A model generated the notes under the pieces. That model had not been told where the DNA came from. It did no database searches and saw nothing but the letters and a program-made list of their open reading frames with translations. The translations under genes were made by a program, and so were the position numbers. From Psammoneis japonica (Eukaryota), in NCBI GenBank assembly GCA_008632985.1, contig QPGO01000182.1, forward strand, positions 1 to 64,000: a stretch of 64,000 nucleotides of DNA. Direction: 5' to 3'. Positions 31,956 through 59,813 of this stretch are shown here, piece by piece; the stretch's first letter is position 1; each line of letters starts with the position of its first letter.

Positions 31956-32219
31956 GATGCTCTTCTACAGTATGATGTTGGATGATGATGTCGACTGTTT
32001 AGCATTGAATTTTGGAATGATTCTGATTCTGAAATCTGTTTTTGGAATTTCGCAGTTCGCAAATTTATATAATAATTTCTGGGTTCTGAGGTTAATCATT
32101 ACGATATATTATTTTTTAATAGCTGGATGGTCAATGTCATTTTGAAATATTTTCTCTTTGGTTGTTTCATTCTGCTGCGTTTCCCGCTGGTCCTCAGCAT
32201 TTTGTTTTGCCAGCAGACT

Positions 32220-35354: not shown

Positions 35355-36289
35355 ATGTCAGCATACGCCTTGCCTGGACCTCTGTTTCCACCCGTCAAGC
35401 TGCGACCTAGCAGGGGGGAGTTGTCTTCTGAATGTCGCTCCGACAGTTGGTCACCGTCTACCTCACCGCAGCACAAGGAGACAACCTCGGCAGACAGTCA
35501 TGCCGTGACCAAGAACGAAAGCACGAGAAGAACCGCAGAAGTTGGAATTGCAGTCAAGAAAGGTAGAATAGATCCAAGCCACCTCGTCAAGGCTCCAAGA
35601 AGACGAAACCTAAGCAGCTACCCCCAAGATGATTTCACAAGCTCGGGAAAAGAGTTCAATGATGGCGTCGTGCAGTTGCCTCATGGAGATGCTATTGAGT
35701 TTGAGCTATCGATCTCCTCAACGGGAGAGACTACTCGGCAAAAAGATCGCTTCCAAGCATAATTCAACTCCGTAACGAGCTCATTCGCGAGGTCAATAGG
35801 CGCAGAAACGGATCACAGCTTGGATGGAGGAGACCGAAAGCAACCTTTGATCATGAACCAAAATTTATTGATAAGGATGATGATACGGTGGAAACGGTGG
35901 AGTCAGAGTACGATGATGACATGGTAGATGTCACCATTCCTGAGCTCCCAGACTGTATTGCAGATAACGCTGAAAGTGTCTCGACGGGCGGAGTAGGTGC
36001 GAGAGGCTTTCGATTGCTGCAAGCAGTGATCCATTCGTATTGTCCCGTGATTGAACGGTGGTTGCGGCATGTGGCGGATATCGTCCCTCCCAGCAGCAGC
36101 CCTTGTCTCATGAAGTTTCTCTGGGAACCACTTTCTCAGGGTTCAGAGGTTCGAGACTTGAGGCCATTAAAAAAGCATGGAAGTTTCTCCACATCGCTTG
36201 ATAGCATTGACGAATACGAGAACTTGGAAGAGGAGAAAGAAGAAACAGACGATAGGGTGCTGGTGAGAAAGGTGGTTGCACAAAGCTAG
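35355..36289 (+). CDS. Hypothetical protein with PX-like domain; apparent 1-nt frameshift at ~35716
   Basis: Restoring one base joins FELSIS to NGRDYSAKRSLPSIIQLRNEL...IPELP...SYCPVIERWL...FLWEP. Confidence 0.55.
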
Positions 36290-38551
36290 GGTTTGAATAA
36301 AGTATTAAATGCAGTAACACAGTGCGACGTGATGCTTGATGACTGCCCTACATACGAGTACAAGCTACTCTAGAAACTCACGCTTTACATCGTTTAACGG
36401 TTCAGCATTCCCCTTCACGTAGATGTGTGTAATCAGAGCCAACATCCAAGACCAACTTGAACGTCACAATCAATAATGTTCTTGATGAGGTAGGCAGCAA
36501 CAGTTGCCCCGCCCAAGAACATGGGGAGACAGGAGAAGTCGAAGCACATTTGGTTCCAAACCAACAAGAACTTCTGAGCCATTCGAAAGCACATGGCAGG
36601 GAGTGAGATTTTGGACTCAATTGTCAATTCCAACCACCTCAAGGTGATGGGTCCTGCTTCTTTGTTTGTGCAAAGGTGAGCATGTTTGTTCTTCTCAAAG
36701 AACACACAATCCTCCAATCTGCACAATGTGGCATTGTCTGCATCTAACAGCGATCTCAACATGTGATTCATCAGGAGCAATCTGCCCCAGCTCACTGCAC
36801 AACTTGAGAATGAAAACATTGATGAGATGTTGCAGACGTGAAACACGTTTTGACCACAAACATGTTCCATTGCACATGTGAGTCCACACTGAAACAACAA
36901 AACTGACTGGCAAAATCTGTCACTCATGTCCAGGACTCAAAGCTCACATGAGTGCACCCATTTTCCTCCAATGACCATCCAGTGTTCATTGCAAATCACA
37001 ACAGCACTGTTGCAGAAAATGTCTTTGGTTTCAGAATGTGCTGCTGTGCTCTGGATTGAATGTCAAAGAGCTTGAGTGCTTGGGGGTGCAGTCTGACAAT
37101 GCACGGCATGGTCATCATGGTCCATGACCACTTCAATGCAAGACAAGTGCATCAATTCACCAATGTTCATGAAAATGCCATGGGCACACACTGGTTGGAA
37201 TGTGCAACAATGTGCCTTGGTCATGCACACATTTTTGCTGCTTTCTGCAGGTGCATTGAAGCTCCAGAGAAGGCTCTCATGGCAAGGTCCTGGCAGCAAA
37301 CCACAGCCAACAGCCAACTCAGATCCGCAAATGGAGAGTGACAAGGCAATTGCTGCATGCACCCACCACCACAGCAAGATGTCATTGCTGCTTCTGTCAT
37401 TGTTTGCAGAAGGAGGAGAGAGAGAGCCACCTCGCTGCTCCACCATCCAAACCATGCATCCTTTCACAAATCTTGCACAAATGGGCATTTTTTTGCCATT
37501 TACAACAAGTGGCAATTGGGCCTTTGAGCTCATTTCTCTCCAAGTTTCTCTCAAGCACTGTTCACTTTGGCCACTGTTGAGACAAGCCCTCATCAGCCTT
37601 GTGCTTTTCCACAACATCAAAAGTTGCTTCCTGGGAGAACTTTTTGACTGACCCTGAGAATGACAGTTGACTTCAGTTTGCAAAATTGAACTCACCAAAT
37701 GTGATCTTTGCAGCCAAGTGACAACAAACCAGGTTCCATCCATCATCCAGTCTCCAACAATTTTGTGTGAATGAGGTGCAAAGGACCAACAAAAGCAGAG
37801 TTTGATGTGCCGGAGGAGGAGGGTGCTCAAATGATCACAGTTTTCTTAATGATCTGCTTTCAATGATCATTTTCATAAAGATTTCATCATGAAGATCAAA
37901 GATGATGGCAATGATGACATGCCACCACCCCCATTGGACAGATGGGAGAGCTTGAATGACAAGAACAAATCACGCAAGGACAACATGGCCAGCAAACATT
38001 CAAAGGGGCTTTGTTGGCAGCAATGGAAAACTCCTTGGCAAATCAAGAGTGCATTGTGGTTGGTCACTCCAAGGAACACCCACCAAAGAGTGCAACAGAA
38101 CCCATGGAGCCATGTTCGGCCACTGTCTTGTCTTGGTGCTGCACTCACATTTGGCATTGTTCATTTGATCTGACCTTGCCACATTCCATTTTCTGTTTTG
38201 CAGGCACTGGGAATTCATTGGCCAGTTTCTCATCAAAGATTTGGGGGGATGTGAATGCTTCGATTTCAAGAACTTTCATGACTGTGTTCATTTGATGGAA
38301 AGTCAACACTGGAGGCAAAACATGTGCTAATTTACTTTGGAATGTTGGCTGTGGCAATGATGTGCCAATCAATGAGTGCAGTGAGTGGCATCACCTGTGG
38401 CCACTCTGGGTTCATGGATCAGTGGAAGATGATGTGAAACACCATTGCATCCATTCCCTTGTTCACACACAGTGTTTGCTGGTGCTTTGGGTTTTTGTTC
38501 ATGGATCATTCTACACCATCATGCACTGGGTGCAGTTCTGCACTCTGGCTC

Positions 38552-41500
38552 TGAAGATTGCCAATTCGTCAAGACAGTCATTGTGACTCACTGTTTTGAT
38601 GACTTGCATCATCAGGGCTGATGCGCTTCAAAACACCCAGAAGAGAAGAGGTCAAGAGCCTCCTCTCCTCACAATCTCAACTCAGCTGCTGTGACACTGG
38701 CACCTGGTGTTGCCCCATGTCCATTGTGCATTGTCAAACATTGCCTGTTGATCACAATCCAACAAGGACATTCCATTTGCTCTAACTTCAGCTGAGCAGG
38801 CAATTGCGTGAGTCATCAACTTTTGCAAGAGTGCTGGATAAAAACCATTCCATGATGGTTCAGAACAGTTGAGCGGAGAGCTGTTAGACTGCACTCCAGG
38901 CAAACTCTTTCAGTTCCTCAAGAACATTGATGACAAGGCCTGCTTGCTTGGATGGGATGATCCAGTCACAGGCACTCTGATGATGCTGGAGGACCCTGAT
39001 GATCCCAACATGGCACATTTGAACCTGCTCACCAATTGTGGTGAAATCACCTTGGAATGCATCAAAAGACATGAGGAGCCACACATCATGAGTCCATGCT
39101 GTGTGGCCCAAGACACTGCCATGCTCAGTCACTGTCTGATCAACTCAATTTCCAAAGCAGGCAAAAGGACAAGGTGCACATCCATGACCAGTCCTGCTGC
39201 AAGATCAGAGGAAAGATTTCTGCTTGTTTGCTCCTCAAGGTCATCATTCAAGAACCATTTCTTGATGCAAATGCAATCATGAGCACAGTCCGCACTGAAC
39301 TCTTGGAGCTTGACCAGTGCTTGCCTGCAATCGGTCATGACATCACAAAGTTCAATCAGCACATGGCTCTCCCACTTGTGGCATTGCGGTCTTGTGGTGA
39401 AACCACAGAACACCTCCTGACAAATCTGTTCAAGGGACACTTGGCTGCTTTCAACAAGAGCTTTGTCAAGTGCATTGGAAACAAGCAAGAAGAACATGAG
39501 GATGGCAAGAACATTGCACCAACTTGATGCCAGCAGACAACAAGCACAAGAACTTGGTTCAGAAGCAGAAGTGGAGTGCACCAAGCAAGGAGGAAGAGAA
39601 GACACTCACCTTGGAAGCCAAGGTGGAAGGTGTTGAGAAAAGAGCCAAGAAGAAGGAATCCACTGAAAACACCAGGAATGGTCCCAAGCATGGACAGAAA
39701 GGGAGAGGCAGTGGGTGACAGGGGCAACATGCCCAAGTGGATGAAGGACAACTTGTGCCCCACCAAGGATGTGATCTCCAAGCCAAAGCATTGGAATGGT
39801 GTGCATTGCCATTGCTGCCATGAAGATTTGGAGGGAAATGCCCTGGCAAGTGGTGCAAGCACACTCTGGAGAATGCAATTTTGATCCAGATCAAGCAAAC
39901 AAGAAGAGGACAGCTGAAAAGACAAGAGCAGCAATGGATGAGAAAAGAAGTTTGGCCTCAAGCACAATGGCAGGCACTGCCTCAAGCTTGCAAAGACACA
40001 CAAGGCAGTTGTTGACAAGGAGGGGTCATCAGGCAAAGATTCCAAATGACTCCCAGAGCACGGTCACCATTGCAACTGCTGTGATCAGCACATGCAAGAT
40101 GGAAATGCAAATGAGACCTTGTGATGTCATGCCATGCTTTCCTCAAAGTGACCGTCATTGTCCCAGCACTGATCATCACAGACCAATCAATGGCCTGCAC
40201 TCACTGCACTCTGCCAGCAGTCATCCTTGTCATCTGCTTGTTGCTCCATCACAACAACAACCCAGGGCACTTGCCAGCCACATTGTTGCCCAAGCAAAAG
40301 CAATGGCACAGGCTGCACTCTGGTTGTCGCTGTCTGACCGGCAAGCTGTGTGCAATTGGGGAATGAGTCGCATGCTCCATTGAAGCAAGCAATTGACACC
40401 AACACTGACTTGTCCAGAAGAGGGAGAATCCAAAGGCTCCACCACTCTGTGGATGAGCTCAAGAGCCCCAAGCAATCATCTCACCACACTGCAGCACTGG
40501 CTGTGGTTGTGCAGCAATGCAGGCTCAACAAGAGCATCTTGGAACACATGTTGGCCTTCAATGCCAATTGTGGACCAGCTGGGGTTGACAATCAGGCTGC
40601 AGGTTGCATGTCCAATTGCACGAAGACTTCATCAGTGAAGCAAGATTGCAATGGAGCCATCAAGGGATTTGGTGGATCAAGATCAACCTCAGTGAAGGTT
40701 GTGCCCTGAGACTGCTGTGGAGGTGGAACAATGATGAGGGCAGAACACACAAGTTCAAGATGCCAAATTCATTCTGCACACCAAGTGGGAAGGTCAGGCT
40801 GCTGAGCCATCAACATTGGGCTAAGACCTGAAGGGACAACAAATCCAGAGAAGGCACTGGCAGCAAGACCAAATCAAAGCAGGTCACCCTCCATTGGAGC
40901 CAAAAGAAACACCAACTCACTGTGCCACTGAGCAAAACCACCAATGTGGCAATGTCTCACTTGGCACCCGGGTGCCAGAAGCATGAAAAAACATTCTGTG
41001 CAGAAGCTGACATTGACCCAGCACACAAAGTTGAGGATCCTGTGCCAGCCAAAGAGGCCACCAGTGCAAGTGATGAATGAGGATCAAGACAAAGCTGTGG
41101 GTGGGTGCAACACTGATGCACTGCACAAATGGCAACCTGCAAGCCAAGATCTGTTGCAAGTCTCAGGGTTGGCTCCTGGGAAGGTGACACAGATCAATGA
41201 CAGCGGACCATCAACAACAGCAGATTTTGACTTAGACAGACCAACTGCTGTGGACAGCAAGCACAAGGGATGAGACACAGACACCACACCAAGTTTGACC
41301 TCAGAGGGAGCAGACTCCAACCACCAGAACCCCAAGACAATTGCCAAGGGTCCACCATGGCATCACCACTTCCAAAGCACCATCAACAATTTGGTCATGT
41401 GAGTTTCACAAAATGCAATGGATGGTGAGATTGGGCATGCCACCAGTTTGCTCCACGTGCCCACATGCCAAAAAAACATGATGCAACCAGGAACCGACAG

Positions 41501-44344
41501 AGAAACCCACATGCCCATGCCAAGTTGTCTCAGCAGACCAACTGGCATCACCAACACAGGGGTTGATTGCTCAAACAACCAGATGACTGCTGACAACCAA
41601 ATGGCACAAGTGCACTGTGGTGTGTGTCAATCAATGTTCCAGATTGGGGTGCATGCACCTGCAAAAGACAGCATTAGCAGAGACATCAGAGGGCAAACAC
41701 ACTTTCAAGCAATGCACCAAGAGTTGTGGCATCACAGTCAAAGCCTGTCATCATGCTGACAATGGCATGTTCAAGGCAAACAACTGTGTCTTTGCATGTG
41801 GAACACAGGGGCAATGGCTCACCTTTGCAGTGGTGGGACCCACCATGCCAACAGATTGGCTGAGCACTGAACATGCAAACTCCAAGAACTGGCAAGAAGC
41901 ATGTCAATGCTGCATGCTCAAAGCCATTGGAAGAAGGCAATCACAGCAAGCCTGTTGCCTCATGTGACATGAATAGCCAACAATGCGTGCAACAACACAC
42001 CCAGTTTTCAAAACAATTGCAAGTTGACCCCACTGCAGATGTTCTCCAAGACCCAAGTCTGCAAACACAGTGCACATTCTGGACAGCACATTGCAATCTA
42101 ACCTGCCACATCACAAAGGATGAAAAATTCAAGGGTTTGAGTCTACTCAGGCCAAAGCCCAATGCATGGAAAGAACATGGGCACTCGCATTGGACCAAGA
42201 AGCCACTGCTCCAGTCAGCCCACAGTTCCATGTCAAATTTGATCCATCCTTCAACATGGTGCAGCAGGATAAAACTTGATTTGCAATGGCAAACCAAAGC
42301 CAGTTTTGCAGCTGAGAGGGAGGCAACAAAGGCCAAAACCAGTGGAGCAGTCAAAACGGCGTCCACACCAGCTCCAATCAAGAAGAAGCATGAGGCAAAT
42401 TCAAAGGGAGCCAAGCAAGGCAAGAAACAATGAAAACATGTCCAATGGACTGACCTGCAAGATTTGGAGCCACAACAGAGTGGCAACACTCAGTGGCCGC
42501 TGGCCAAGTGGCATCAGGGTAAAATGCTCCACATGCACAACCTTGAGAGCATGGAACCACACCTGCAACTGAATCTCTGGAAGTGGCTCCAAGCAAGCGC
42601 AAGTCTGACAAACACAAAGTGGTGCCAATGCAGCCAAAGTGACTCTCATTCAGGGTGTAAGAGCCAGCTGGTCAGCAGACTGACAGAAGCCATGACATCT
42701 GAAATCAGCTCTGAAATGAGGAGCGACATCAAGGGTGAGACAATGTGTTTGGCAGCCATGTGTCCCCAAGACTCGCAAGTGCTCCAAGAAGATGAGAATC
42801 CCCTCCTTGCCTGCAAAGCATCAGCAGATCCTGATGCCATGCATGTGCATCAAGCTGTGAAGGAACTGGGTTGCATGCAGTTCCTGTGGGCCATGCAAAA
42901 AGAGGCAATGGATCAAACATGGAAAATGGTGACTTCTCCATTGTTCCACAATCACAAGTGAAAAGAGACAGCAAAAGGTGCAACCAACAGGCCGGAAGAG
43001 TGTGGAACAAGTGTCTGGTCAACAAGCTTGTCAACAAGCTTGGATTCAAGCAATGAAAAATTGACAAGTGTGTGTTTTACCATGGAAAAAACATTTGCTC
43101 TCCTGTGCACAGATGACTCACTCATTGTCGGTCCTGATGAGAATGAAACAAATCACATCATTGAGGAACTCAAAGAGGCAAAGCTTGACATTGCTGTGGA
43201 AGGGTGCACACAGGATTTTCTGGGTGTCAACATTGTGAGAAAAGATGATGGCACTGTTCATTTGACACAACCACACTTGATTGACAAGTTGCTCAAGAAC
43301 TTGTGGTTGGATTTGCTGAGTGCTGTGCCTGAGGATGTCCCTGCAACATCCTCCAAAATCTTTTCAAGGCAGTGTGACTCAGAACCATTTGATGGTTTCT
43401 TCAACTGCAGATCTGTGGTTGGCAAGCTGAGCCATTTGGAGAAATGCACTCACTGTGGTGTGCATCACCTGCCAATGTGCATGGTTCATGGCAGATCCAA
43501 AGGTTGAGCATGGCAAGGCCACAAGATGGCTTGGTTGGCAAGCATGTGTGGATGCAGACTTTGGTGGCAATTGGGATCTGCAAGAAGCAGGCCAAGATTG
43601 TGACACTGCAAGGTCAAGACATGGCCACATCATTGCTTGCACGGGGGGGGTTGTCCCATTTTGTGGAAATCCCAGTTGCAAACTGAGATTGCATTGAGCA
43701 GCATGGAGTCTGAATGCACACAGGCTTGTCATGTGCCTTGTGAGAAGCCATGCCCTTGAAGGAGATGCTGAAGGAACTCAAGCAGCATGGATTTCCCATC
43801 AAGACATCCAAGCCCAAGATGCATTGCAGAGTGTTTGAAGACAACAGCAGTGTGCTGGAGATGGTGCGTGCACACAAGCACAGACCATGAATGAAGCACT
43901 TGAATGTCAAGTTGCATCACTTTGGAGACTGCATCACATGGAAGGAGATTTCAACACACAACACAGACACCACCAAGGACCAACTGGTGGATCATCCAAC
44001 TGAACCCATTGCAGCTAAAATCTCAGAAGCCCTGCATCCTTTGGTGATGGATTGGTGAGTTTCCCAAGTGCAAGGAAACCCTCTGAGAATGCCTCACTCT
44101 GATTGGATGGTTTGACTTGCAAGACACATTGAGAGGGAGTGTGAAGATTGTCAAATTGTCAAGACAGTCATTGTGATGCACTGTTTCAATGATGCATGTC
44201 ATTGGGGCCAATGTCATTCAAAAGACCTGGAGGAGGAGAGGTTGAGAGCCTCCTCTCCTCACAACCTCAACTCAGTTGCTGCAACACCAGCACCCAGCAT
44301 CACCCCACATCAATTGTGCATCATCAAACACCATCTGTTGACCA
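38552..44344 (+). mobile_element. Degenerate Ty1/Copia LTR retrotransposon
   Basis: ~203-bp LTRs at 38552-38754 and 44142-44344; PPT GAGAGGGAG at 44131; gag remnant ~38870-39700; IN HADNGMF; RT LCTDDSL, DFLGVNI; RNase H CVDADFGGNWD, RSRHGHII, VFEDNS, KHLNVKLHHF; possible TSD GGCTC/TGCTC. Confidence 0.88.
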
Positions 44345-47300
44345 TGCTCTGGATGTCACAACACCAGAGCAGCCCAAAAGGTCCTGGAGCATGTGTTGGA
44401 AACTGCCCTTGCTGGTGCAGTTGGTTGCTCTCTTTGTTGTTGTTCACATTGATTTGAGAATGATGTTCTCTCATGCAGCATCTTTTTTTCTTTCAAATCT
44501 TAAATCAGGGTGTGGCACAAACTGTTGCCAATTGGAAAGAGGCCTTGCAAAAAATAAAAGAATTCACATGGGATGACAGCATGTGTTGAAGCCACCATCG
44601 ATGACCCAATTTCAAAAGAATGCACACCAAAGATGCAATCCCCCACATTGTCAGAGCACAGATGGAAAAGCATCATTCTTGGCACTCCACACCAATGTCA
44701 CTGCTGCATCATTTCTTCATGGCAATGGTGTCCATGCAGCATGGCTTTCAGAGCTTTGACACTGAGGAATTTTGCAACTCTGAGCAATGCATTGGACTGA
44801 CATCTTGAGTGCCCCACACCCATGATGCTTCCTGCTGTCTGCACTCTGTGCCATTTCCAAAGTGCAAGGTCAAAAACAAATTGTTTGAGTTTGATCTTTG
44901 GGTGTGATGTTGAGCCTTGCTCATGATGCCACAGGAGCAATGTTGTCCAACAGTGGCACCTCCAAAACAGCACCAGCCCACCACCACAGAAGAAGAGCTC
45001 ACCACAACCAGTCAACATCCATGGCTCATGACAATGACAAAGGCAAGGCCTGCTTTGTGGAGTTGATTGATCTCATTGAATTAGAAGGTGGCATCCATTG
45101 ATGGATGCGCTGCCACTGTTGATTGTTTGACAGACAGAAGCCAAGGGTGTGGGCAAAGAATCACAGAGAGATTGCCCTTGGATTGTGCCGGTGATGTCTT
45201 GGATGCCTTGTTGACAAAGTTTGAATGTCCACAAAAGCATGGGGCTTGTCTTGATCTGGCTGAATTGGCAGGATGGGGACTTCCCTTGCCCAATCACTTT
45301 CAAGAGGTGCTGCCAGTTGTTGTGAAAGCAAAAAAGGCAAGACTGGCAAAGAGCATGGCATCAACTCATGATGTTGTGCAGGTGCTCACTGAAATCAATT
45401 GTTGCTGAGCTGCAAGTGCTGTTTTTCAGGAATGCATTGGTCAACAGAGAGGGTGCTGATGTGAGCATGGCATGGGTGGAGACATGCCAGATGGCTTTTG
45501 GCAGTTGCGCGCTTGTCATGTTGATCATTTTTCTTAACTGCTCTTTCACATCTGCAGAACTTCAAGCACAGCATTTCCATTCTCACTGTGGTGGACAACT
45601 GCACTCCTCATCAGTGGCACAACGGACAGGTGGCTCAGCTTGAACACTGTCATTTGCCACCTGCGTGGTCAGGCAAGATTTGCCACTGGGATGCTGGATG
45701 CCCGCCATTTCTTCATCATGATGGTCCTGTCCTTTCTTCACATTTCAGCTGACCTCTGCAATTTTCCCACTGCTTGTTTGTTTCCAGCTTGTGGAGAAGC
45801 TTGACTCAATTCAGCTGCACACACTGGGAAGCTGCCTCTTCCTTCTGCAAGAATGCTCTGCAATCTGTTGGATGCCAGATTTCACCCACTGAGATCCAAG
45901 CAAAGCTGCACCAGCAGGACTGTTCATTGACAAGGAAACACACATGAGAATGATTGGAGTGTTGTGCTAAAGAGCAGGTCTGTTGATGCATCATGCCACT
46001 GAGTGCAGCAGTTTCTGTCACAGACACAGGGGCTGCACTGGCACCCAAAGCCGGTGCTTTCATTGGGATGGCACATTTGGAGGAGGAGCTGGAGAGATGG
46101 AAGCATCCAACTGATCTCCTTGCAATGGACTTGGTGTCATCAAAGAGGGCATCACACCACCAAGTGCATCAGCAGGGGGACGGTGCTGGCATCACAGTTG
46201 ATGCCTCCTCCAAAGATGTCTGCATTTCTGCTTGTTTCAAGAGCTGTCACCAAAAGGCTGCAGCAGTGTCAGAGTGTCATGGCAAAGGCTCTGACACAGT
46301 GGAGCACATGCTGGCTGGCTGTGCCCCTCACATTTTGTGAGCCTGTGGCAGAACCAGCTGCACCACACTGTGCGCTCCACATCAAAATGGCGGCGCAGGT
46401 CTGCTGGCTGAGGGTGGCAACAATTTCCTTCAAGCAACTGCAACAATCCATCTTTCCCCCTTGTTGGGAGAAGCCCAAGCATGCAAGGAACTGATCTCCT
46501 TGTGATGGAGTTGATGGCATTGTCAAAAAGGGCATCGTGCCACCAAGTGCATCAGCATGGCAGGATGCGGCACTGGCCACTGTGTTTTTTGGTCGATGCT
46601 TCCATTGATGGCACAGTTGGAGGAGCAGGGGATGGAGAGATCAGAGTGTCCATCTGAAGATTGACTTGATGATGTTGTCAAGGAGGGTGCAGCACCACCA
46701 AGTGCATCAGTTTCCGTCATCGGAGTGGGGCCATGGCGCTCTGGCACCAAAGTCATCGTTTTTCCTCTGGTTGCACCATCTACAAAGTCGAAGACATCTC
46801 AATCATTTGTGCATCCCAAATCCTCATGAATGAAGATCTTGCATTGCTGCATTTTGGCACCTGTGTCTGGTGTCGGAATTTGAAGATCGCACTGCCCAGC
46901 ACAATGGCGGATTGTTGTTGGCACAAGCCACATCGGACTTTGGCATCTTTGGAGCACAAGCATTGATTGTTTGTTCAGGAGGTCAATGGAAAATGTTGTT
47001 GCAATTGCAGTCATCCACTGACAGCTTGGCTTCTCCCCACCAGCTTGAGGCCATTCTCATGGGTTTTGCTGGGAAAGCAGACCATGTGAGTGCACTCTTG
47101 CATCACAAAACCACGGACATCAGCAATGTCAATGAAGATGGAGTCCACATTGACAACGTGACAATGCACACCAACAGGGGACCATTCGGGTTCGAAATCA
47201 AGTGGGCACCTGATGGCCAGGATTTGTCCGATGAGTGCCATTGTGTGGTGCAGTCTGTCATCATTTTGGTGGATGCGACAACTCAAGGTGATGTCCCCAT

Positions 47301-50300
47301 GTGGCAGGACAAGGTGCTTCATCTGTGTGGGAGCTCCACCCCATGTTCAGTGGCCTGCAACACGGACCAGGACAGCAGCGCGGCCACCTGAAAAGTCAAA
47401 ATCGATGAGAATCTTGTGGGACATTGGCATGCTTCACTGCTCAGTGGCATTCACTTCAGATGGATCCATGTTGACAAGATTCCATTGGACCAGCCAGTCT
47501 CTTTTGACAGTCAGAGTGCAGATCTAAGATGAAGACAACAGTCCATCTGTTTGGATTCACTTGCCACTTCCCTTGTTCCAGAACAACAATTTGTCAATTC
47601 CCCAATGGTTTCCTCTGACTTTTAACAGTTTGAAGCAGGGACATGGCAGCATGACAAACAATGGGGTTCTTTGGAGATTGCAATCTTCTTCCTGCATCCG
47701 GTGGTTTTGGGAAGAGGGAGGTCGATTGAAAGACAAAAAGGCATGGCCAGTGCGAGAAACCCCAGTTCATTGGAAAGCACTCCCTCTTTCAACTTGTGCG
47801 TGTGTGTTGAAAAAGCAAAAGCCATTCATTGGTCATTGTTGTGGAGGTGCACAAAGTTGCCATTGTACATTCCCATGATGTGTGGCCCTGCCGTGATGAC
47901 TTACGATGACGTGCTTGGTTCAGCGGGTGCGGCCTCGTTCTTGTTGTTTCCTCTTGGTTGGTTTTGTCCTCGCGGCGCTTTTTGGGGTTTCCGGGGATGG
48001 ATCATTTGGATGCTGCCGGCACTGCTCATGATCTGGAACAGAAAATGCTTCTTCCTGCTCACTCTTTTAATGCGCCTTGACACAAGTCTCATGCCAACGT
48101 GGGGTTGGCCACACGAGCCCCAGCAGAAGTTAAACACACACTGGCCAGCTGTGCTTTTGTGAGCCTGGCCCTGTGTCAGAATCATCTGCCACATTTTGCT
48201 GCACTCCATCTGTGTGATTGAATCCATCAAAACAGTGCAGGTCTGCTGGCTGAGGGTCGCAATGAAATCCTGCAAGCGATTGCAACAATCCACCTTGCCC
48301 CCTTGTTGGGATGAGCCCAAGCACTCAAGGAATGCCGGTGCAACAGGGAACATCAAGCCGCGGCACCCTGCAAGGTCCGCTTCCATGCACGCAATTGGGG
48401 CTTGAGCAGCCCACCATTCTTCCAAGACACGTTTGATGCAGTCGGACATCAGAGTCTGGCGCAACTCCTCCTCTGAGCACACAAGCCATTCGGTTTCCTC
48501 CTTGTCCTCCTCCTGACCATCATCCTCTGCTGGCTTGTCCTCCTCATCACCGTCATCCTCTGCTGGCTCCTCCTCCTTGCACTGTCATCCTCTGCTGACA
48601 GTCCTCCTCCTTGCTGTCATCCTCCAAATGCAACAATGCAAGCACCCACAGGAAGCAAGAACACAGAACACTTCATGTTGTTGCACAATGCCCCTCCCAT
48701 CATGAAACTTGCCTGTCTTGCTGTGATCCTGCACAACAACAAGTCTGGCTCCTTCCATGCTTCCGTTGTTGGCACACTCATCTCCTTCCTCCTTGTCATC
48801 CAGATGCTCCTTGTCATCCTCTAAATGCAACTGCTTCAACACACAAATGAAGCAAGAACAAACAATGGCGGCTCTTGCATGCACAATTGCACAATGCCAT
48901 GCCAACACTGGCAGCAAAACTCACTTGTTGCCAAGGCGTGAAAGAAGTGTTCACAAGCATGGGCCAACATTCTTGCACCATCGTCCAGAAAGTTCAGAAA
49001 TGTCTGGTTTTCATCGGCTTGTTCCATGACCTCCTGTTGTTTGCACAAAATTCCAATTCAATGAAACCAACCTGTCACCTCCGTGACAGTCAGTTTGTTG
49101 TGTCTGTCTCATCCCAGTGGTCTGCATTGTTGCTGTGTGACATGTCAGAACCCCACTTCATCTGCCATGGGTGCAAAAGGTTGCCAATGCTCACTGGTGC
49201 ATCACATTCTGGAGAAAGAAGGAATGTCTGCATGTGGTGGATCAGGGATTGGTGCCACCCATGGTGGTGAAGCTGCCACAATCATGCACATGCTCAATGA
49301 GTCCGGACCCAATGCTTGGTTGGGACTTGGTCATTCAAGCAGACCCACAATGTCAACTTGACAAGATTTGTCCACTTCACAAAGAGCATCTGACAATTTC
49401 ATGGGAATGGGCTGTGAATGCCACCCTGAGAACCACACATGATCAGCATGACTGGGTTGTGATTGGTTGGCGACTCATTTTCACCGGCATTGTCAGCTGG
49501 CAATGTCAAAAAGCATCCGCAAGAAGTTGCTGCATGGAAGGTGCAAAGCAGCACACTTGGAGCAACAGGGCTTGAGACAGAAGAGCAGAGAGTCTTGAAG
49601 TGGTGCAGCTCAAGACTCTCACATGATGACTTCAATTGGAGCACATTCAAGCACGGGAGAGGATGGAGCAGACAACTGCACTTTGCTTGGTGCTGCACTT
49701 GGAGCTTGCAATGGTGTCAACAATGGCGCACTGCTGTTTGGAGCAGCTGATGGAGTGATGGATGGCCCATCACTTGGCACAGCTGAAGGTGCATGTGATG
49801 GTGCATCATTGGGTGCAGATGATGGGGTGTCTGATGGTGTGTCACTGGGAGCTGTGATCCAGGCTTCAGATGGGGTGACAGATGTCAGGAAAGTTTCTGG
49901 CAGACAAAATCAAATTGCCACTTTTTGTGAACAACAACCAGACTGTAAGGGCAAGGTGGCAAACCATTTTGTGACAAAGCCATGTTGGATGAAAAATTTT
50001 CAAGTGCAGCAAAGGTGCAGCTGTTGAACAAAATGAACTCACTGAAAATGAGTGGCCTGACTGGCACAGCATCCAATTTGTGACACTTGTTTCTTCTGGA
50101 GTTTCTTGCAAGAGGCAAATGTGTGGGAGCTGGCAATGACATGCAAATGTGCAATGCCCCTGACAAATTGCACCAATGGGGGCATTTGCTGCCAACAGCT
50201 TCACATTGGAAGCAACAACAAGTCAGACTGTGGATGTCTGTCGTGTGCTTTGGCTGATGAGAACAGGATCTGAATCTTCTGTCTGTTGTGGCCAATGACC

Positions 50301-52966
50301 AAGGGACACCTGTTGGGAATGACTCTTGTTTCTGTCACATCTCACATGTGACAAATGTGTGCAGAATGCATGGGGCAAATGCACACAGACTTTTGTGCAT
50401 GGTTGCACCAGCAGGGCCATGGGTGGCTGCTGGGTTCACATTGGAGCACCAATTGCCACTCACCAGGGTGCCACATGGTGTGCATTGTTGCATCGTACAC
50501 CAAGGCTTCTCTGGCTCAATTGCAAAGACATGATGCCTGCAAGCACTGGAGCACAGCAGACACTTAAGAAGAGGTCAATGTTGAGCCAGCAAAAAAAATC
50601 CAAAAAATGAAGAACGTCAGCAAACAGAGTTGCATTGTCAAATGTGATTGCTTGAATGACACTCCAGTTGTTGCACATTGTTGAATTTGCAGCACGTGTT
50701 GTCTCCAACAACCTTGTCAACTGCCTTTCTTGCAACCACTCTTGATGTCATGGATCTTTTGTTGCTTTGTGTTTTTTTTTTGATTTTTTGCACAGGTGGC
50801 ATGTGCTGTCCCCCATTTTTAAAATGTCCAGGTCTCCATTGTTTGGCATGCTCCTGAAACAGTTTGGTGTGGTGCTCTTGCTCTTTGCTCTCTGCTTGTT
50901 GTTCATGCTTGCACTGCTCCACACACTCTGTGTGATTGTCTGCCTCCTGGTCAGTCATGATCCTGATGAGATCTTCTCAGAGCCAAACATCCATCTCCTC
51001 CCGGTGGCAACACTCAGCCTGAATGACCCACAATGGTGGTGTCATGGGAGCACTTGGTTGGCGCATGTGATGTGGTGGTGGCACAAGCATGATGCCCAGC
51101 TTTGCCAGCTTGTCATGGTTTTGCCTGTTGTGCCAAAAACAAGCTTCTTCCAAGCCTCCTGCCACACCTTCTTCTCAGCTTCCTTCTTGGCTTCTTCCTT
51201 TGGATCAAGCTTCTTCAAAGCTCTGTGTTTCTTTTGTTGCAATGTCTTGTCTTTGGGGGCACATGCATTGCAATGGTGCACTCTGATGGCTGTTGGAGTT
51301 TTGTGGAGATCAATCAATTGGAGTTCTCATCAGGTGCAATGCAAGTTTGAGTGATGTTCCACATGCAGAAAGCTCTCATGCAAGAAGCCAAGGCCTTTAA
51401 AAACAATGGCGTGCTGATGCACATGTGCATTTTGCACATCCAAGTTCACTTCATTCAGTGCTTTGTGCTCTTGCACAAATTCAAAACAGAGTTGATGTCA
51501 GGGTCACTGAAGCAGCAGGCCTGGTGCATGCTGATGTGTCACAAGCACATTTTGTGTGACAAGAATGTGTGAAACACCACATGATGTGACGTCATCACTC
51601 TCTAAAAAAGATTGTGCAACAAGCTGAACAAGTTTCTGTGTGCAACCATGATGAACACACAATGACTTTGGCAGCAACAACAAGCAAGTTTGTTCTCAAT
51701 GGCACATCAGAGTGTTGTCAAATGATGTTCTTTCCTTCATTGCAACACACAGCATTTTTGGATTAAAGCAGCTCAAAATGTCTTGCTTTTGGCTTGCGTG
51801 CATTCATGCAGGACTGGTGCAAAATCCCACATGCTGCCAGTCCAAGTTGCAACTTGACAGAAGCCCTGCTTCAATGAACTTGGGTTGAGGTGAAGTCATT
51901 TGATTGTTTTAAAAAGCAGCACAGTGAAATTTGGACAAGAGCACCACTTTCAATGCTTCTGATCATGAGACAGATGATGGACCATGTGTGGTGAGGCATG
52001 AGCACTCAAGGGCAAGTTTCATGACATTTTCTTTCATGGTGGTGCTCACAAAATTGATTGTTTTCAACACATTTGTTGTCTGGGTGAAGTTTTCTTGCCT
52101 GTTGTTTCAGAAAAAATGAGGGTCAGAAGAACAGCTGACACCTGCCTCCTTGAGCTCCAGTGACCACAAATTTGCCACAATTGCTGTGGAATCTGCACCC
52201 AAATGACTGGTCAGGAGTCACCAGGTCCACCAGAGAAGGACACCAACAGCTTGCAATTAAAACAAACCAATGAAATTTGAACCAACTGACAGCCAAAATG
52301 GCCACGGTTGTCAGTGACCATGATGGCCCGCTTTTTTCAACCTTGTGGAAAATTGAATGACATGATGAGGACCACAGCATTTTATGCAGTCTGTGTCATC
52401 AACAACAACAATGATGGAAATGCTTGTTGCAGGCTGCAGCACTGCTCAAGAAGCCAAAAATCTGTTGGCAACAATGCAATTGAGCCTCGCTTCAAAATCA
52501 CAATTTCATCCATGTCATTGAATGACACAAGCACTTCAGTTGTTCATGTTGATGAAAAGATGAAAAAGGTTCCAAAGTCAATGCTGTTGCATGAGCTGAG
52601 TTTAATTTCTTCTCATGTCTTCTGAACTTTTTTCATCAGCGTGTGTCTCATTTGTTCTGTTGAGAGCAACTTGCACTGAAGTGTTGCAACAAAATGTCAT
52701 TTGCAAATTGTGAAAGCATTCACACAAGAGAAGATTTGCTTTGTCTTTTCATGTGCACATTGTTGGGATCACAGATTGCTCATCAGAAAACTGAGCTCCC
52801 ACCTTGTGTCACCTTTTGGCAATCAACAACTCACCCCACCCTCAGGATGATTCTCAGCTGGACAATTTGACATGCTGGTGGCAGGGACTGTCAGAACGGC
52901 CATGGACAATGTGGTGTCAACCTTTGGGTTTTACAACAGGAAAGACCCAAGGTTGGAAAAGGAAAG

Positions 52967-53660
52967 ATGAAAAAACCAAGATGGACAGCAGAAGCAGCAG
53001 AAAGTGATTGCTGTTTCCCTCCTCCAGGCTCTGTCCCAAAACCAAACGACATGCAAAGATGTCACGGCAAGCCAACTCTAGCCATTGGTGTCTGGTTCTT
53101 TGCCATGAGTTTCTGTGAGCACTCGAAGACCAAAGGCGACCAACGAACCAAGCTGCTGACCCTCAAGAATCTCTGCTTCTTCCAAGACAACACCAAACTG
53201 CAACACAAAGACCCAGACCTGGCCTCAGCTGATGCCATCTCCATCACCTTTGAGTGCCAGAAGAATGATGAAAGATGTGACACTGTCACAATGTTTTGCA
53301 CCGGAGACAACTTGCTCTGTCCTGCCCATGCATGGGCAGCAGTCAGCAGTGGTCCATTGGGCACTGTTCTGACCACCAGGCTCTGTCCCAGACTCCCCAG
53401 TGTGCCCTGTTTGCACCAATGGAAAACTCCACTCTCTCCTCCTCAGTCATCCATTCCAAGATGCAAGCAGCAGCAACTGTGATCAGCAAGGACAAGAAGC
53501 CAGGCTGCAAAGCTCATGAGGTTGGTGCTCACTCCATTTGCTCAGGAGCAGCCATGGCAGTGTGTCTTGCACATGCACCTGTTTGCTTGATCAGCATCAA
53601 TGTCTCTTTGCAAATGATCTCAAGTGCCAACATTTCTTTGCAACATTCCGGACTCTGACC
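52967..53660 (+). pseudogene. Tyrosine recombinase remnant of a YR element (DIRS/Ngaro/Crypton-like)
   Basis: FFAMSFCEHSKT...SITFECQKND...LCPAHAWA and EVGAHSICSGAAMAVCLA match degenerate R-x-x-E and H-S-x-R-x-G-A-A motifs. Confidence 0.75.
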
Positions 53661-53875
53661 CCAAAGATCCTGGAACCTGCAATCGCCACAAACTCCAAGC
53701 CACTGATGTGAGCAACGGCACATGTCAAGTGCAGTTGATGGCACAACTGCAATCATTTGCTCTCTTCACTTGAGCGGCTCAGATTTCAGCAATCAGATTG
53801 AAATTTTGCAAGTGAGTCATGAGGGTGCATCAACTGCAGCACTGTCGGGTCCCTGGGGGATCATTCACACTGGGG

Positions 53876-54303
53876 ATGAAAATTTCTCCAGGCCAAACCA
53901 TTGGGTTTTAATGTCAGACTGTTTGCACTCGGGGCTGGAGTCCGCGACCTGTGGTGAAGACTTGGTTGGATGGGCCATTGTTTGATCAGACCATGTGGAT
54001 GCATTGATTCTTTCAGCCGGCGATGCACACAACATTCGGTGAATTCAATTTTGCGCGCCGATGTCAACAGTCATTTCTCAACGACTTTGGAAGTTGTTGG
54101 CGAAGCTGTGACAATCATCGTCGTGCATTGCAAGCTCTGTCGAGTTGTCTTGGTCTTCTAAATTCCCCAAACCCACCCTGCATCAACAACTGCGGCGTGT
54201 CAGGAATGAAAATTTCCCAGGCCAAACCGTCAGGTTTTCACGTCAGACTGTTCGTTTCGGGATTGGAACCCGCGACCTGTGGCGAGGACTTGGTTCGATG
54301 GGT
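53876..54303. repeat. ~100-bp direct repeat pair (53876-53976, 54206-54303)
   Basis: ATGAAAATTTC..CAGGCCAAACC...GTCAGACTGTT...CCGCGACCTGTGG.GA.GACTTGGTT.GATGGG occurs twice. Confidence 0.8.
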
Positions 54304-54499
54304 CGATGGGTCGATGGGTCATCGACGAGCGCTGCAGAGCGCACGAAGCTCATCACTTTCTTTGCGATGCTCCGCGCATGTGGCGCGCGCTGAAGATCCG
54401 AGCGTTTGTCCGTCGTCCGTCCATTATTTTCTCCGCGTTGCTTTTCTGTCGCCCAGTCACACAATGGCGGTCAAGTTGAGGAGAGACAAAAGTCTAACC

Positions 54500-55460
54500 A
54501 TGAGTCGATATCTACAAACTCTTGTGTTCTTGTTGAGCCTTTTTGAGTTTGCAGGGGCTGTTGGGCCCTATTTTATTCTTTCCAATACACGTCCGAAATG
54601 CTTTTCCGTCGATGTGCCCCGTGGTACCAAGTTGAGTGTCGAGTACGATGCTCCAGACATGGTAATCATGTCGACTGAAGATGCAATCAAGGGTAACAAC
54701 CGAGATATGAATCGGGAAATTGATCGAAATTTGGGGTTGGATGCGAGATATGATAAGCGATACAAGGAAAGAATGGCGGAAATGCAGCGTGCGGTACGTG
54801 AGGAAACAGTGCAGGCTGGGAGTGCGGAGCTGAGCACTCGTTCCGTTCTGTTGTATTCTCAAACACATCCTTTTATCGTTTCTTTATAAACTGTAGGGTA
54901 AGATTATGAGAGACATGTCAATCACTATCCAACCAAAAGGAGAGACGCTCAGGGATGCACGAGAGGCACAACGAAGAGACAGCCCATGGGGTAGCCGTGG
55001 CCCCACCACCAACCGATTGCGGGAAGATTTAATAGAAAGACAGGGGTCACTCGATTACGAAACTGGCGATCGGGACGGTGAGATTGAGATTTGCGTCCAG
55101 AGTATGAGTGCAGCGCAAAAACATCCTTGTCGCTTCTCCCTTCGCGTCGACCAAAAGTCGACAACAATTCGGCGCAATCGAGAGGCCCGAGCGCAAAAGC
55201 AAAAAGAGTCACGAGAAACGGCAGAGCGGCACTTGACACGAATGGAACGTGACTTAGTCTCATTGACGGAAAAGGCAGCGGTTGTGCTGTCAAACGCAGA
55301 CTTTTCCAAGGATCAAGAGGTGGACTTTCACGAAAAGTCGCTCGCTCTGAACAAGTCGAGTCAGTGGTGGCCCATTCTTCACATTTTCATCATTCTCGTT
55401 GCTGGAGTATTGCAGGTGAAGCATATGTTGCGTTTCTTTAAAGCAAGGCATATTTATTGA
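54500..55460 (+). CDS. emp24/gp25L/p24 (GOLD domain) family protein (intron 54794-54896)
   Basis: Signal peptide, PKCFSVD, EIEICVQ, coiled coil, QWWPILHIFIILVAGVLQV TM and FFKARHIY tail. Confidence 0.85.

Positions 55461-59777: not shown

Positions 59778-59813
<36 letters not shown>

Follow-up and report, generated by a model that had tools for sequence, protein, structure and literature searches.

Loss of TpA from a block of dead transposable elements

The stretch of DNA from the diatom Psammoneis japonica analysed here (64,000 nucleotides, the window) contains a block at 36430-54420 from which the dinucleotide TA has almost disappeared. The question is why the few remaining TA lie where they do; their particular contexts narrow the kind of enzyme that is possible. 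Composition and a window scan delimited the block, a pile of degenerate repeats. Its 17,991 bases contain 52 TA (o/e 0.04), and the DNA flanking it on either side has a TA o/e of 0.45-0.46. CG is also scarce (n = 187, o/e 0.18), CA (n = 2184, o/e 1.85) and TG (n = 2001, o/e 1.88) are in excess (CA+TG o/e 1.86), and the o/e of AT (0.95), AA (1.13) and TT (1.16) is ordinary. The edges are sharp, within about 100 bases: normal TA density ends near 36490 and resumes at about 54450. TpA-poor, CpA+TpG-rich 1-kb windows also form clusters in the DNA of the chlorarachniophyte Bigelowiella natans, and under the thresholds of the preprint on that species (Rho TA <= 0.43, Rho CA+TG >= 1.52; Mettrop et al., bioRxiv 10.64898/2026.01.13.699255) 18 consecutive 1-kb windows of the block, from 36001 to 53001, pass.

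We found that 540 contigs (run X1) match the block at a likeness of at least 80% (120 at >=99%, 47 at 95-99%, 125 at 90-95% and 248 at <90%), which shows that its families recur elsewhere in the genome. Differences between these copies and the block are mainly transitions (A>G 318, G>A 283, C>T 285, T>C 286), each transversion type reaching only 43-65; among the 40 rows listed of 1617, paired changes between CA and TG occur at 40619/40620 and 42717/42718. Within the block, a degenerate LTR retrotransposon occupies 38552-44344 (+ strand), with LTR remnants at 38552-38754 and 44142-44344. Over 203 aligned bases the two remnants differ at 49 positions, 42 of them transitions, and 15 sites have CA in one copy and TG in the other. 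A Copia-typical RNase H-like tail was recognised by eye in the frame translation; a Pfam search of the element gave no match, and the HMM of Copia-1 relatives (below) did not detect it. The block also contains part of a gene that resembles tubulin-specific chaperone D and encodes ARM repeats, at 45085-45405 (+ strand; Pfam PF25767, E 4e-11, profile positions 103-166 of 245), and no other such piece was found among 86 plus-strand ORFs at 43.4-54.5 kb. What fills the block, then, are old and dead transposable elements piled up in the nuclear genome of a diatom or a very close relative. Two further tracts are poor in both TA and CG, at 32201-34500 (TA o/e 0.05, CG 0.21, CA+TG 1.84) and 23501-24500 (TA o/e 0.05, CG 0.09, CA+TG 1.84).

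TpA changes in a younger Copia element

A younger Copia retrotransposon, Copia-1, lies on the minus strand at 9321-16997 (LTRs 9321-9598 and 16720-16997; TA o/e 0.15, CG o/e 0.83). It is nested in another element, older and poor in TA and CG (9001-9320 and 16998-17500). Its LTRs, compared over 278 aligned bases, show 29 differences, all 29 transitions, and are identical in purine/pyrimidine code; 8 sites have CA versus TG, 1 has TA versus TG and 10 have CG versus CA or TG. The pol gene (Pfam RVT_2, 2.4e-20) is preserved on the minus strand at 9653-12741 in three frame pieces (12433-12741, 10011-12068 and 9653-10015). Using an HMM of 72 homologues, we inferred its ancestral codons at 431 conserved columns. 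Among 63 changed conserved residues, 26 are explained by a single TA>TG/CA step (TA-type), 15 by a single CG>TG/CA step (CG-type) and 3 by other transitions, and 19 are unexplained. The 23 conserved tyrosines have become 11 Cys (TGY), 7 His (CAY), 2 Phe and 1 Trp, with 2 still Tyr. Because LTRs are identical at insertion, the presence of CA in one copy and TG in the other at the same sites places the changes after insertion and on both strands. These results show a regional, DNA-level, post-insertion conversion of TpA to TpG/CpA (A:T to G:C transitions on either strand), which is near completion in the block.

Surviving TA sites are biased in context

We counted the TA survivors of the block with both flanks inside it (n = 51) and found 30 YTAR (TTAA 14, CTAA 11, TTAG 4, CTAG 1), 19 mixed (ATAA 5, GTAA 3, GTAG 1, ATAG 1, TTAC 5, CTAC 3, TTAT 1) and 2 RTAY. 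Both RTAY sites are GTAC, at 47866-47867 (TTGTACAT) and 50496-50497 (ATCGTACA), the latter being a CGTA that adjoins a CpG; ATAT, ATAC and GTAT are all at 0. The by-eye scan of the initial annotation (about 50 TA, about 30 YTAR and about two RTAY, both GTAC) was thus accurate, the exact counts being 52, 30 and 2. The survivors were compared with five baselines, each a stand-in for the ancestral sequence of this one 64-kb window. They differ from the ordinary DNA of the window (177/673/379 YTAR/mixed/RTAY among 1229 TA; p = 4e-19), from its part outside ORFs of at least 100 aa (p = 1e-11), from the expectation of a first-order Markov model of the block itself (p = 3e-6), from its own pool of xCAy+xTGy, the possible source of new TA (p = 6e-9), and from related Copia elements that are unmutated (n = 63; 3401/9640/6382 of 19,423 TA, or 17.5/49.6/32.9%; p = 1e-14). 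In dinucleotide-preserving shuffles of the block, YTAR reached 30 or more in 0/1000 and RTAY fell to 2 or fewer in 1/1000. The survivors therefore match neither unmutated DNA nor related elements, and the proposal that TA survival depends on context, with RTAY nearly eliminated, is borne out. The same skew is present in the tracts 23501-24500 and 32201-34500 together (6/4/1, p = 7e-4), in the CG-retaining TA-poor tracts of the window (17/24/4, p = 6e-6) and in Copia-1.

Context-dependent TpA hypermutation is very probably the cause of this bias. The surviving TA would be its slow-reacting tail, since the rate of loss depends on the flanks of TA in a strand-symmetrical manner. The resistance that had been proposed for all YTAR sites holds for TTAA and CTAA/TTAG, but not for CTAG, which is no more resistant than GTAC: per 1000 sites of the Copia baseline, 14.7 TTAA, 9.2 CTAA/TTAG, 1.3 GTAC and 1.2 CTAG survive, with 0/1733 ATAT and 0/3090 ATAC/GTAT by baseline equivalents. 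The resistant half-site is TTA/TAA, held by 44/52 block survivors versus 477/1229 ordinary TA (OR 8.7, p = 7e-11). In an additive fit, we treated each TA as two half-sites, one per strand, each defined by the nucleotide that precedes its T. Flank dependence was strongly favoured (likelihood ratio test, p = 4e-23 in all TA-poor tracts and p = 1e-16 in the block), and the loss constants per half-site in the block were A 2.8 > G 2.1 > C 1.2 > T 0.3, which makes ATA and GTA the half-sites lost most readily. T occupies positions -1/-2/-3 of survivors in 56/51/40% of cases versus 21/27/28% in ordinary DNA. ATAT, ATAC and GTAC are thus lost first and TTAA and CTAA/TTAG last, and resistance is increased by T runs before and A runs after TA. 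The difference in rate between RTAY and YTAR is modest, by a rough estimate about 3-fold, and it yields a 15-fold skew among survivors because decay is near-complete.

We found three of 80 environmental Copia relatives to be partly mutated in the same sense (L078, L021 and L053; TA o/e 0.22-0.33). At 41 aligned conserved-Tyr positions they carry 8 Cys and 14 His; the remaining 77 loci have 0 Cys and 4 His at such positions. RTAY is under-represented among the TA that survive in the three loci (21 vs 37.1 expected, p = 0.005), and here the resistant flank is C, not T (half-sites C 72 vs 48 expected, T 44 vs 47.5); CGTA is not enriched among them (13 vs 14.4 expected). Conserved tyrosines were retained at 9/18 post-pyrimidine and 8/21 post-purine positions, in the predicted direction and far from significance.

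Targeting is regional

A 260-base direct repeat occurs on the plus strand at 61294-61552, beginning 5 bases past the HSP70 ORF, and at 63733-63999, reaching the end of the window. The left copy has 13 TA at aligned places; of these the right copy keeps 4, 5 being now CA and 4 TG. Between the copies, a tract at 62001-63700 is poor in TA (o/e 0.04) and normal in CG (0.85), and a Pfam search of it gave no credible match. Duplicated gene segments at 7928-8289 and 22542-22903 share 12 TA and are not TA-poor. Because the copy adjoining HSP70 is almost untouched while the other is mutated, targeting is regional and not homology-driven.

Which base and which strand

The leading idea for the chemistry, held tentatively and derived from sequence, is a targeted deaminase that may turn adenine into hypoxanthine in DNA. 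The mutating agent, whatever its chemistry, would read the TA step and both flanks in duplex DNA, or would depend on the ease with which the step opens. The damaged base could instead be thymine: T at TpA would be modified in silenced DNA, for example by a TET/JBP-type hydroxylation to 5-hydroxymethyluracil, which mispairs with G and gives T>C, and the flank rule would be the preference of the T-modifying enzyme. The sequence data fit A and T equally, because TA>CA and TA>TG are one event viewed from opposite strands. The palindromic, strand-symmetric flank dependence suits a duplex-reading enzyme, and dinoflagellate 5-hydroxymethyluracil prefers TpA. We nevertheless consider this reading unlikely, as the 64-kb window holds no candidate gene for it and adenine deamination is what the sole experimental study of this signature favours, without proof (bioRxiv 10.64898/2026.01.13.699255).

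A more specific proposal, made in the initial annotation, was a TadA-like adenine deaminase whose substrate is the A of 5'-TAY-3' on either strand; RTAY would then offer two good targets and YTAR none. It predicts the observed survivor order RTAY < mixed < YTAR, and an ADAT2-like deaminase is put forward in the B. natans preprint's main text (bioRxiv 10.64898/2026.01.13.699255). The loss of RTAY fits a sensitive 5'-RTA-3' or recognition of the whole duplex equally well, and YTAY and RTAR sites, where the strands differ, are the sole discriminators among the three. There the TAY rule predicts YTAY>YTGY and RTAR>RCAR. In the repeat pair, all 5 strand-distinguishing events went against it (CTAC>CCAC, CTAT>CCAT, GTAG>GTGG twice and GTAA>GTGA). 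At pyrimidine-preceded conserved Tyr codons of Copia-1 pol, 7 of 12 changes were TAY>TGY and 5 were against, which brings the total in favour of the rule to 7/17. The half-site rate ratio of about 3.4:1 from the additive fit would imply far more rule-following events, and CTAG, contrary to this reading, is not resistant. A TAY-specific deaminase is therefore improbable, and the claimed likeness to the UAC target of TadA falls with the rule. The results indicate that the flanks govern the speed of TA loss, not the choice of strand. TadA targets U-A-C-G and fungal ADAT mRNA editing prefers UAG; ADAR, ADAT2/3 and TadA share with the block the A>G outcome and a T/U directly 5' of the A, but act on RNA or a single-stranded loop, whereas here integrated DNA is altered, on both of its strands, and sensitivity does not follow the base 3' of the changed A. 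A single-stranded U-A-C-like loop is thus apparently not what the agent reads.

Some of the 52 TA of the block are probably new. It is very improbable, though, that the survivors as a whole arose as new TA, through ordinary C>T at abundant CA/TG after hypermutation, with contexts that reflect their birth sites. The block is old enough (7 transversions and about 11 transitions outside CA/TG or CG sites in the 203 bases of its LTR pair), and 4185 CA+TG are available, but that pool is near-even by class (987/2183/1015 YTAR/mixed/RTAY) and births would have to be biased more than 10-fold. Copia-1 shows the same skew, yet its LTRs differ only by TA-type and CG-type changes; TA newly created by ordinary mutation are therefore negligible there and cannot explain its survivors. 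Even with births, a skewed steady state requires context-dependent removal.

Many RNA viruses and cytoplasmic RNAs avoid UpA and CpG. That the composition was inherited, by RNA-level selection against UpA/CpG or by ADAR-type editing before reverse transcription (ADARs prefer to edit an A that follows U, according to the preprint), is scarcely credible, being refuted for this window by CA versus TG at the same LTR sites. Also against it are the destruction of 21/23 conserved pol Tyr, which no functional lineage would tolerate, the effect on the host gene fragment inside the block, and the single-copy DNA virus insert targeted in B. natans (bioRxiv 10.64898/2026.01.13.699255).

Comparison with known systems

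The closest likeness is to B. natans, a chlorarachniophyte, where, according to the preprint, 230 of the 231 de novo mutations detected in two viral insertions were A>G or T>C, all at TpA (Mettrop et al., bioRxiv 10.64898/2026.01.13.699255, version of 14 Apr 2026). As in the block, TpA goes to TpG/CpA, and targeting is regional and not repeat-induced, the giant-virus insert being single-copy; low-TpA coding sequences there are enriched in reverse transcriptase and DDE transposase. The present host is a diatom as judged from one protein, HSP70, whose nearest named relatives are from diatoms; the targets are retrotransposon piles nearer completion (TA o/e 0.04 vs 0.45 in the giant-virus insert), and the evidence comes from diverged copies rather than de novo mutations. 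The words "context", "trinucleotide", "flanking" and "CpG" have 0 occurrences in that main text, and our literature search found no report of TpA hypermutation in diatoms.

RIP of fungi likewise acts on DNA, ruins transposons, has a dinucleotide target with a flank preference, and leaves sharp-edged blocks with extreme dinucleotide skews. It is opposite in direction, turning CpA into TpA and enriching TA, whereas here TA is removed and CpA/TpG enriched; it makes stop codons, and the process here erases TAA and TAG, and in Copia-1 ORFs as long as 609-684 aa overlap on the two strands. RIP also requires duplicated sequence, unlike the targeting described above. APOBEC3 enzymes hypermutate retroelements with a short sequence-context preference that is read from copy comparisons, an enzyme-like pattern resembling the present one. 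APOBEC acts on a single strand, during reverse transcription, and yields C>T/G>A; the changes here are A>G/T>C, affect both strands and follow integration.

CpG decay and CpG protection

Parallel to the loss of TA, and absent from the initial annotation, are a loss of CpG and a protection of CGTA/TACG sites. A slower CpG -> TpG/CpA decay is superimposed on TpA hypermutation: it accounts for 10/29 of the Copia-1 LTR differences and 15/63 of the changed conserved pol residues, and it is slower because Copia-1 has already lost most TA while retaining most CG. Methylation-driven decay, as read here from sequence, matches the low CG of the block with its gain of TG/CA and accounts for the CpG half of the pattern only.

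In CG-retaining tracts, CGTA/TACG makes up 22/61 survivors versus 168/1229 ordinary TA (OR 3.6, p = 2e-5). Nine of the 22 sit in one 364-base stretch at 12069-12432, which interrupts the Copia-1 pol match and retains 15 TA (9/15 CGTA/TACG; ATA at 1/30 half-sites); without it, the figure is 13/46 (OR 2.5, p = 0.009). The loss constant is 0.02 for G preceded by C in CG and 1.7 for other G. Statistically, G within CpG is resistant in the young CG-retaining element, and the protection is gone after CpG decay. Such CpG-linked protection would suit a methylated cytosine that hinders a targeted deaminase.

TpA depletion in a pile of degenerate repeats

The pile of degenerate repeats at 36430-54420 (17,991 bases; hereafter the block) retains 52 TpA sites, at an observed/expected ratio (o/e) of 0.04, compared to 0.45-0.46 in the adjoining DNA. 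CpG is scarce as well (187 sites, o/e 0.18), with an excess of CpA (o/e 1.85) and TpG (o/e 1.88). ApT, ApA and TpT occur at normal levels without depletion; GC-biased gene conversion is ruled out as the cause, because TA is the sole depleted A/T dinucleotide. The thresholds applied to genomic windows in a preprint on Bigelowiella natans (Mettrop et al., bioRxiv 10.64898/2026.01.13.699255) are satisfied by 18 consecutive 1-kb windows at 36001-53001, as well as at 32001-34001.

The window is eukaryotic and dense in genes, mostly long unbroken ORFs, including those for HSP70 (59268-61289), a mitochondrial carrier, a class-3 7TM receptor and an ion-transport protein. The named HSP70 matches that reach 88-92% identity, covering 97% of the query, all come from diatoms (Thalassiosira, Phaeodactylum, Cylindrotheca and Fistulifera); those named in plants, pig and a yeast have 70-76% identity and are longer, and no match reached 100%. 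On the basis of this one protein, the host is taken to be a diatom or very closely related to diatoms. A repeat spacing of 2439 had raised the idea of a further HSP70 copy, in mutated form, at 61.7-63.7 kb; global alignment gave 46% identity, and the idea was rejected.

Hardly any coding capacity is recognisable in the block: when 14, 41 and 86 of its ORFs were searched with Pfam, only 60 residues of a tubulin chaperone D-like gene (a fragment at 45085-45405) scored above threshold. Within the block lies a degenerate LTR element, whose LTR remnants span 38552-38754 and 44142-44344. An HMM built from relatives of Copia-1, the young Copia retrotransposon of the window, did not match the block's own Copia, so codon-level ancestry cannot be inferred there. 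The block families are repeated in the genome, since 540 contigs in one sample align on the block at a likeness of at least 80%; a purine/pyrimidine-coded repeat search of the window found no additional families. Two parts of the block differ in CpG. At 46500-48500, CpG is several-fold denser (10-15 per 500 bases) than elsewhere in the block and TA is equally scarce, and this part may be a younger insertion in the old pile. The right edge (54000-54450) is TA-poor yet very CpG-rich, with 43 CG in 54001-54500, and a motif at 54256-54295 recurs in CpG-decayed form at 53928-53967.

TpA is changed in DNA after insertion

Copia-1 lies on the minus strand at 9321-16997, with LTRs at 9321-9598 and 16720-16997. 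The two LTRs are the same in purine/pyrimidine code and differ at 29 of 278 positions, all 29 by transitions. These differences comprise 8 sites with CA against TG, one with TA against TG, and 10 with CG against CA or TG; none lies beyond the TA and CG types, and the pair serves as a relative clock. As LTRs are identical at insertion, the ancestral TA must have been hit separately in each LTR, on either strand. Fifteen CA/TG sites of the same kind were found in the LTR pair of the block.

A 260-base direct repeat allows the states before and after mutation to be compared. Its left copy (61294-61552), which starts 5 bases after the HSP70 ORF, is nearly intact and retains 13 TA at aligned places, of which the right copy (63733-63999) retains 4, while 5 are now CA and 4 are now TG; the right copy runs past the window end, and the full element lies partly outside the window. 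Comparison of the block with other genomic copies revealed 1172 transitions, in all four directions, and 434 transversions, and adjacent CA<->TG swaps are present among 40 listed places of the 1617 that differ.

We aligned the Copia-1 pol to 72 homologues (53-64% identity) and obtained 431 columns conserved at a level of at least 80%, taken from the raw alignment (selection by HMM emission probability or by upper-case consensus yielded only 45 columns, none of them a Tyr). The results showed that 63 of the 431 columns had changed in Copia-1, 26 by a single TA>TG/CA step, 15 by a single CG>TG/CA step and 3 by other transitions, with 19 unexplained. The 23 conserved Tyr residues are now 11 Cys (TGY), 7 His (CAY), 2 Phe, 1 Trp and 2 Tyr. 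ADAR-like editing of RNA, fixed by retrotransposition, would give changes older than the insertion and on the transcript strand; it is excluded by the CA against TG at the same sites in LTRs of one insertion, and by the TA-type steps of pol, which read on the coding strand as 15 TA>TG and 11 TA>CA. These results, together with those on flanking bases below, show that a regional TpA>TpG/CpA process acts after insertion, with a strand-symmetric dependence on flanking bases.

The TA-poor tracts of the window fall into two states. Both TA and CG are poor at 23501-24500, at 32201-34500 and in the block, and CG is near normal in the TA-poor tracts of Copia-1 (TA o/e 0.15, CG 0.83) and 62001-63700. 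Copia-1 is nested in an older TA- and CG-poor stretch (9001-9320 and 16998-17500), which gives the relative order of events, and we interpret the two states as a young and an old phase of one history. The CG o/e of 0.18 in the block and the 10 LTR sites with CG against TG/CA agree with methylation-driven CpG decay. A slower CpG decay accompanies the TpA process on the same elements. The window ties fast TpA editing to slow CpG decay in time. Copia-1 also carries a tandem duplication of 172 bases at 12764-13107, whose units are 99% identical.

Flanking bases and the survival of TA

From a count by eye, the initial annotation had proposed that TA resists in YTAR contexts (TTAA, CTAA, TTAG and CTAG) and is almost eliminated from RTAY (ATAT, ATAC, GTAT and GTAC). 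Its counts were exact: both flanks lie inside the block for 51 survivors, which divide into 30 YTAR (TTAA 14, CTAA 11, TTAG 4, CTAG 1), 19 mixed and 2 RTAY (GTAC at 47866 and GTAC at 50496). The annotation had also named a likeness to unmutated DNA as what would undo its claim, and every baseline, each a proxy for the ancestral sequence, rejected such a match. The block survivors differ from ordinary window DNA (177/673/379 for YTAR/mixed/RTAY; p=4e-19), from its non-ORF part (p=1e-11), from the Markov expectation for the block itself (p=3e-6) and from the pool of xCAy and xTGy in the block (987/2183/1015; p=6e-9), and none of 1000 dinucleotide-preserving shuffles attained 30 YTAR. The best baseline was made of those environmental Copia pol relatives with TA o/e of at least 0.6 (63 of 80 loci; 19,423 TA; 17.5/49.6/32.9%), and it gave p=1e-14. 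The survivor skew is also present in the other TA-poor tracts of the window, the whole sample being one window with about 110 surviving TA sites.

To resolve the classes into tetranucleotides, block survivors were expressed per 1000 sites of the environmental baseline. Survival was highest for TTAA (14.7) and CTAA/TTAG (9.2), followed by GTAA/TTAC (3.7), ATAA/TTAT (2.4), CTAC/GTAG (1.45), GTAC (1.3), CTAG (1.2) and ATAG/CTAT (0.45), and there were no survivors for ATAT (1733 baseline sites) or ATAC/GTAT (3090 baseline sites). The survival of the single tetranucleotides indicates that the resistant element is TTA/TAA, present in 44 of the 52 block survivors, and not Y..R as such. The proposed rule holds for RTAY, which is nearly gone (2/51), and has to be redrawn for YTAR, where CTAG survives at the low value given.

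The block is fitted well when each TA is treated as two half-sites, one per strand, and each half-site is given a loss constant according to the base 5' of its T: 2.8 for A, 2.1 for G, 1.2 for C and 0.3 for T. The resistance reaches outward, as T occupies positions -1/-2/-3 of survivors in 56/51/40% of cases vs 21/27/28% in ordinary DNA. By rough estimate, the rates for RTAY and YTAR differ modestly, about three-fold; the survivor skew is larger than this because near-complete decay amplifies a modest rate gap.

A neighbouring CpG and the survival of TA

In the tracts that retain CG, CGTA/TACG accounts for 22 of 61 survivors, compared to 168 of 1229 TA in ordinary DNA (OR 3.6, p=2e-5), and the fitted loss constant is 0.02 for G within CpG vs 1.7 for other G. 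Nine of the 22 fall in a 364-base stretch (12069-12432), without which the excess is 13/46 (OR 2.5, p=0.009). In the old block, where CpG is gone, the CGTA/TACG class is gone too; of the two GTAC that survive there, one still reads CGTAC. A neighbouring CpG, presumably methylated, may hinder the agent. The quantitative flank rule (ATA, GTA > CTA > TTA; strand-symmetric; CGTA protected) is a requirement on any candidate enzyme.

The stretch 12069-12432 interrupts the Copia-1 pol match and contains two near-palindromic CGCACGTAGA(T/A)TTCTACG motifs. It retains 15 TA, nearly all in CGTA/TACG, TTA/TAA or CTA/TAG, and may be either an intron-like part of Copia-1 or a small later insertion.

Choice of strand and the changed base

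The initial annotation had further suggested that the changed A lies preferentially in 5'-TAY-3', reminiscent of the TadA target. The survival classes are no test of this rule, since they would look no different if 5'-RTA-3' were the sensitive sequence or if the duplex were recognised. Strand choice is readable only at sites with unlike strands, and of 17 such informative events 7 agreed with the rule, which is thus not borne out. In the repeat pair, all five informative events oppose it (CTAC>CCAC, CTAT>CCAT, GTAG>GTGG twice and GTAA>GTGA), after exclusion of a TTAT>GCAT pair from a poorly aligned stretch. Among conserved Tyr codons after a pyrimidine, 7 became TGY and 5 became CAY; events in non-Tyr codons were left out because one of the two outcomes is silent. 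The 4-mer excess of CG-retaining tracts over ordinary DNA, a baseline that may not equal the ancestral composition, was +9.9 per kb for RTGR and +12.8 per kb for YTGY. Flanking bases appear to govern the speed of TA loss, not the choice of strand, and the flank rule argues against the simplest TadA-like model. The agent might read or open the TA step in a duplex context, and not in a TadA-type loop; the damaged base may be either adenine, through deamination, or thymine, through modification.

Hypermutated relatives in environmental loci

Among the 80 environmental loci related to Copia-1 pol, three (L078, L021 and L053; TA o/e 0.22-0.33) have Cys at 8 and His at 14 of 41 aligned positions where Tyr is conserved, compared to no Cys and 4 His in the remaining 77, indicating that the process is not confined to this genome. 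The set is biased against heavily mutated copies because the search patterns held a Tyr-containing motif. In the remaining TA of the three loci, RTAY was observed 21 times vs 37.1 expected (p=0.005), C, not T, was the favoured flank, and no CGTA enrichment was found; Tyr retention by preceding base was 9/18 vs 8/21, on few sites.

TA depletion in the three loci (L078 1-1582, L021 1-2561 and L053 1-2363) is partial, and Cys or His now stands at roughly half of their conserved Tyr positions. L053 is skewed to His (7 vs 2 Cys), a possible hint of strand-biased episodes. Two other loci, L056 (1-500) and L012, have TA of 0.43 and 0.51, CG of 0.23 and 0.44, CA+TG of about 1.5 and intact Tyr codons, and look like CpG decay without clear TpA hypermutation.

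Comparison with known systems

In fungal RIP, C>T changes at CpA or another CpN in duplicated DNA lead to a TpA excess and a CpA/TpG deficit, whereas the block shows the reverse (TA o/e 0.04, CA/TG 1.85-1.88); here TAA and TAG are removed, and genes are disabled by missense. To our knowledge, no enzyme of TpA-directed hypermutation is known, and the process has been shown in one organism, by one preprint. That preprint reports that in mutation-accumulation lines of B. natans two integrated viral regions mutate about 1000-fold faster than the rest, at a de novo rate of roughly 1e-7 to 1e-6 mutations per site and generation, and that of 231 changes there, confined to some lines, 230 were A>G or T>C, every one at TpA; it also describes 124 TpA-poor, CpA+TpG-rich clusters and proposes an ADAT2-like deaminase (10.64898/2026.01.13.699255). 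Flanking context and CpG do not come up in its main text. The window resembles this case in A>G/T>C changes at TpA, in foreign DNA as target and in reaching the same window thresholds; B. natans is a chlorarachniophyte and the present host, by its HSP70, probably a diatom or very closely related to diatoms, the host being a feature of that preprint and not of the mechanism. Besides this preprint, our literature search found no report of TpA-directed hypermutation, and none for diatoms, nor did the accessible text of PMC2806351, 10.1101/2025.10.24.684338 and PMC4504042 contain one; nothing useful was found on CpG methylation in B. natans. The window brings the TpA footprint to diatoms, a distant and ecologically dominant group, where it falls on retrotransposons, with 3 of 80 environmental Copia relatives also affected.

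Targets and consequences of the process

The targets are foreign DNA, namely Copia elements and the genome-repeated block families, and adjacent genes keep a normal TA density. Duplicated segments of the ion-transport gene (7349-8289 and 21969-22903), 76-91% identical and about 14.6 kb apart, have normal TA density, so duplication by itself does not attract hypermutation. Targeting may track chromatin or transcription state, because hypermutation has spared the repeat copy just beyond the HSP70 ORF and has left duplicated gene segments untouched.

Taken jointly, the observations allow a tentative reading, which we consider possible although the odds are somewhat against it: diatoms, perhaps along with much of the stramenopile-alveolate-rhizarian assemblage, would have a genome defence in which TpA of silenced foreign DNA is chemically rewritten, by an agent that reads a duplex tetranucleotide (RTAY best, TTAA worst) much as a restriction/modification enzyme reads a palindrome and is blocked by a neighbouring, presumably methylated, CpG. 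If so, cytosine methylation and TpA editing would follow a fixed order on the same elements, and the system would be a second counterpart of fungal RIP, mechanistically distinct, with a footprint searchable in any genome or metagenome.

The replacement of Tyr by Cys or His conceals hypermutated copies from motif-based searches. Because TAA and TAG are erased, hypermutated elements bear long false ORFs on both strands, which gene finders may call as genes. At 10008-15368, where TAA and TAG are erased, long ORFs of 652, 609, 684 and 628 aa overlap on both strands, and only the first has a Pfam match.
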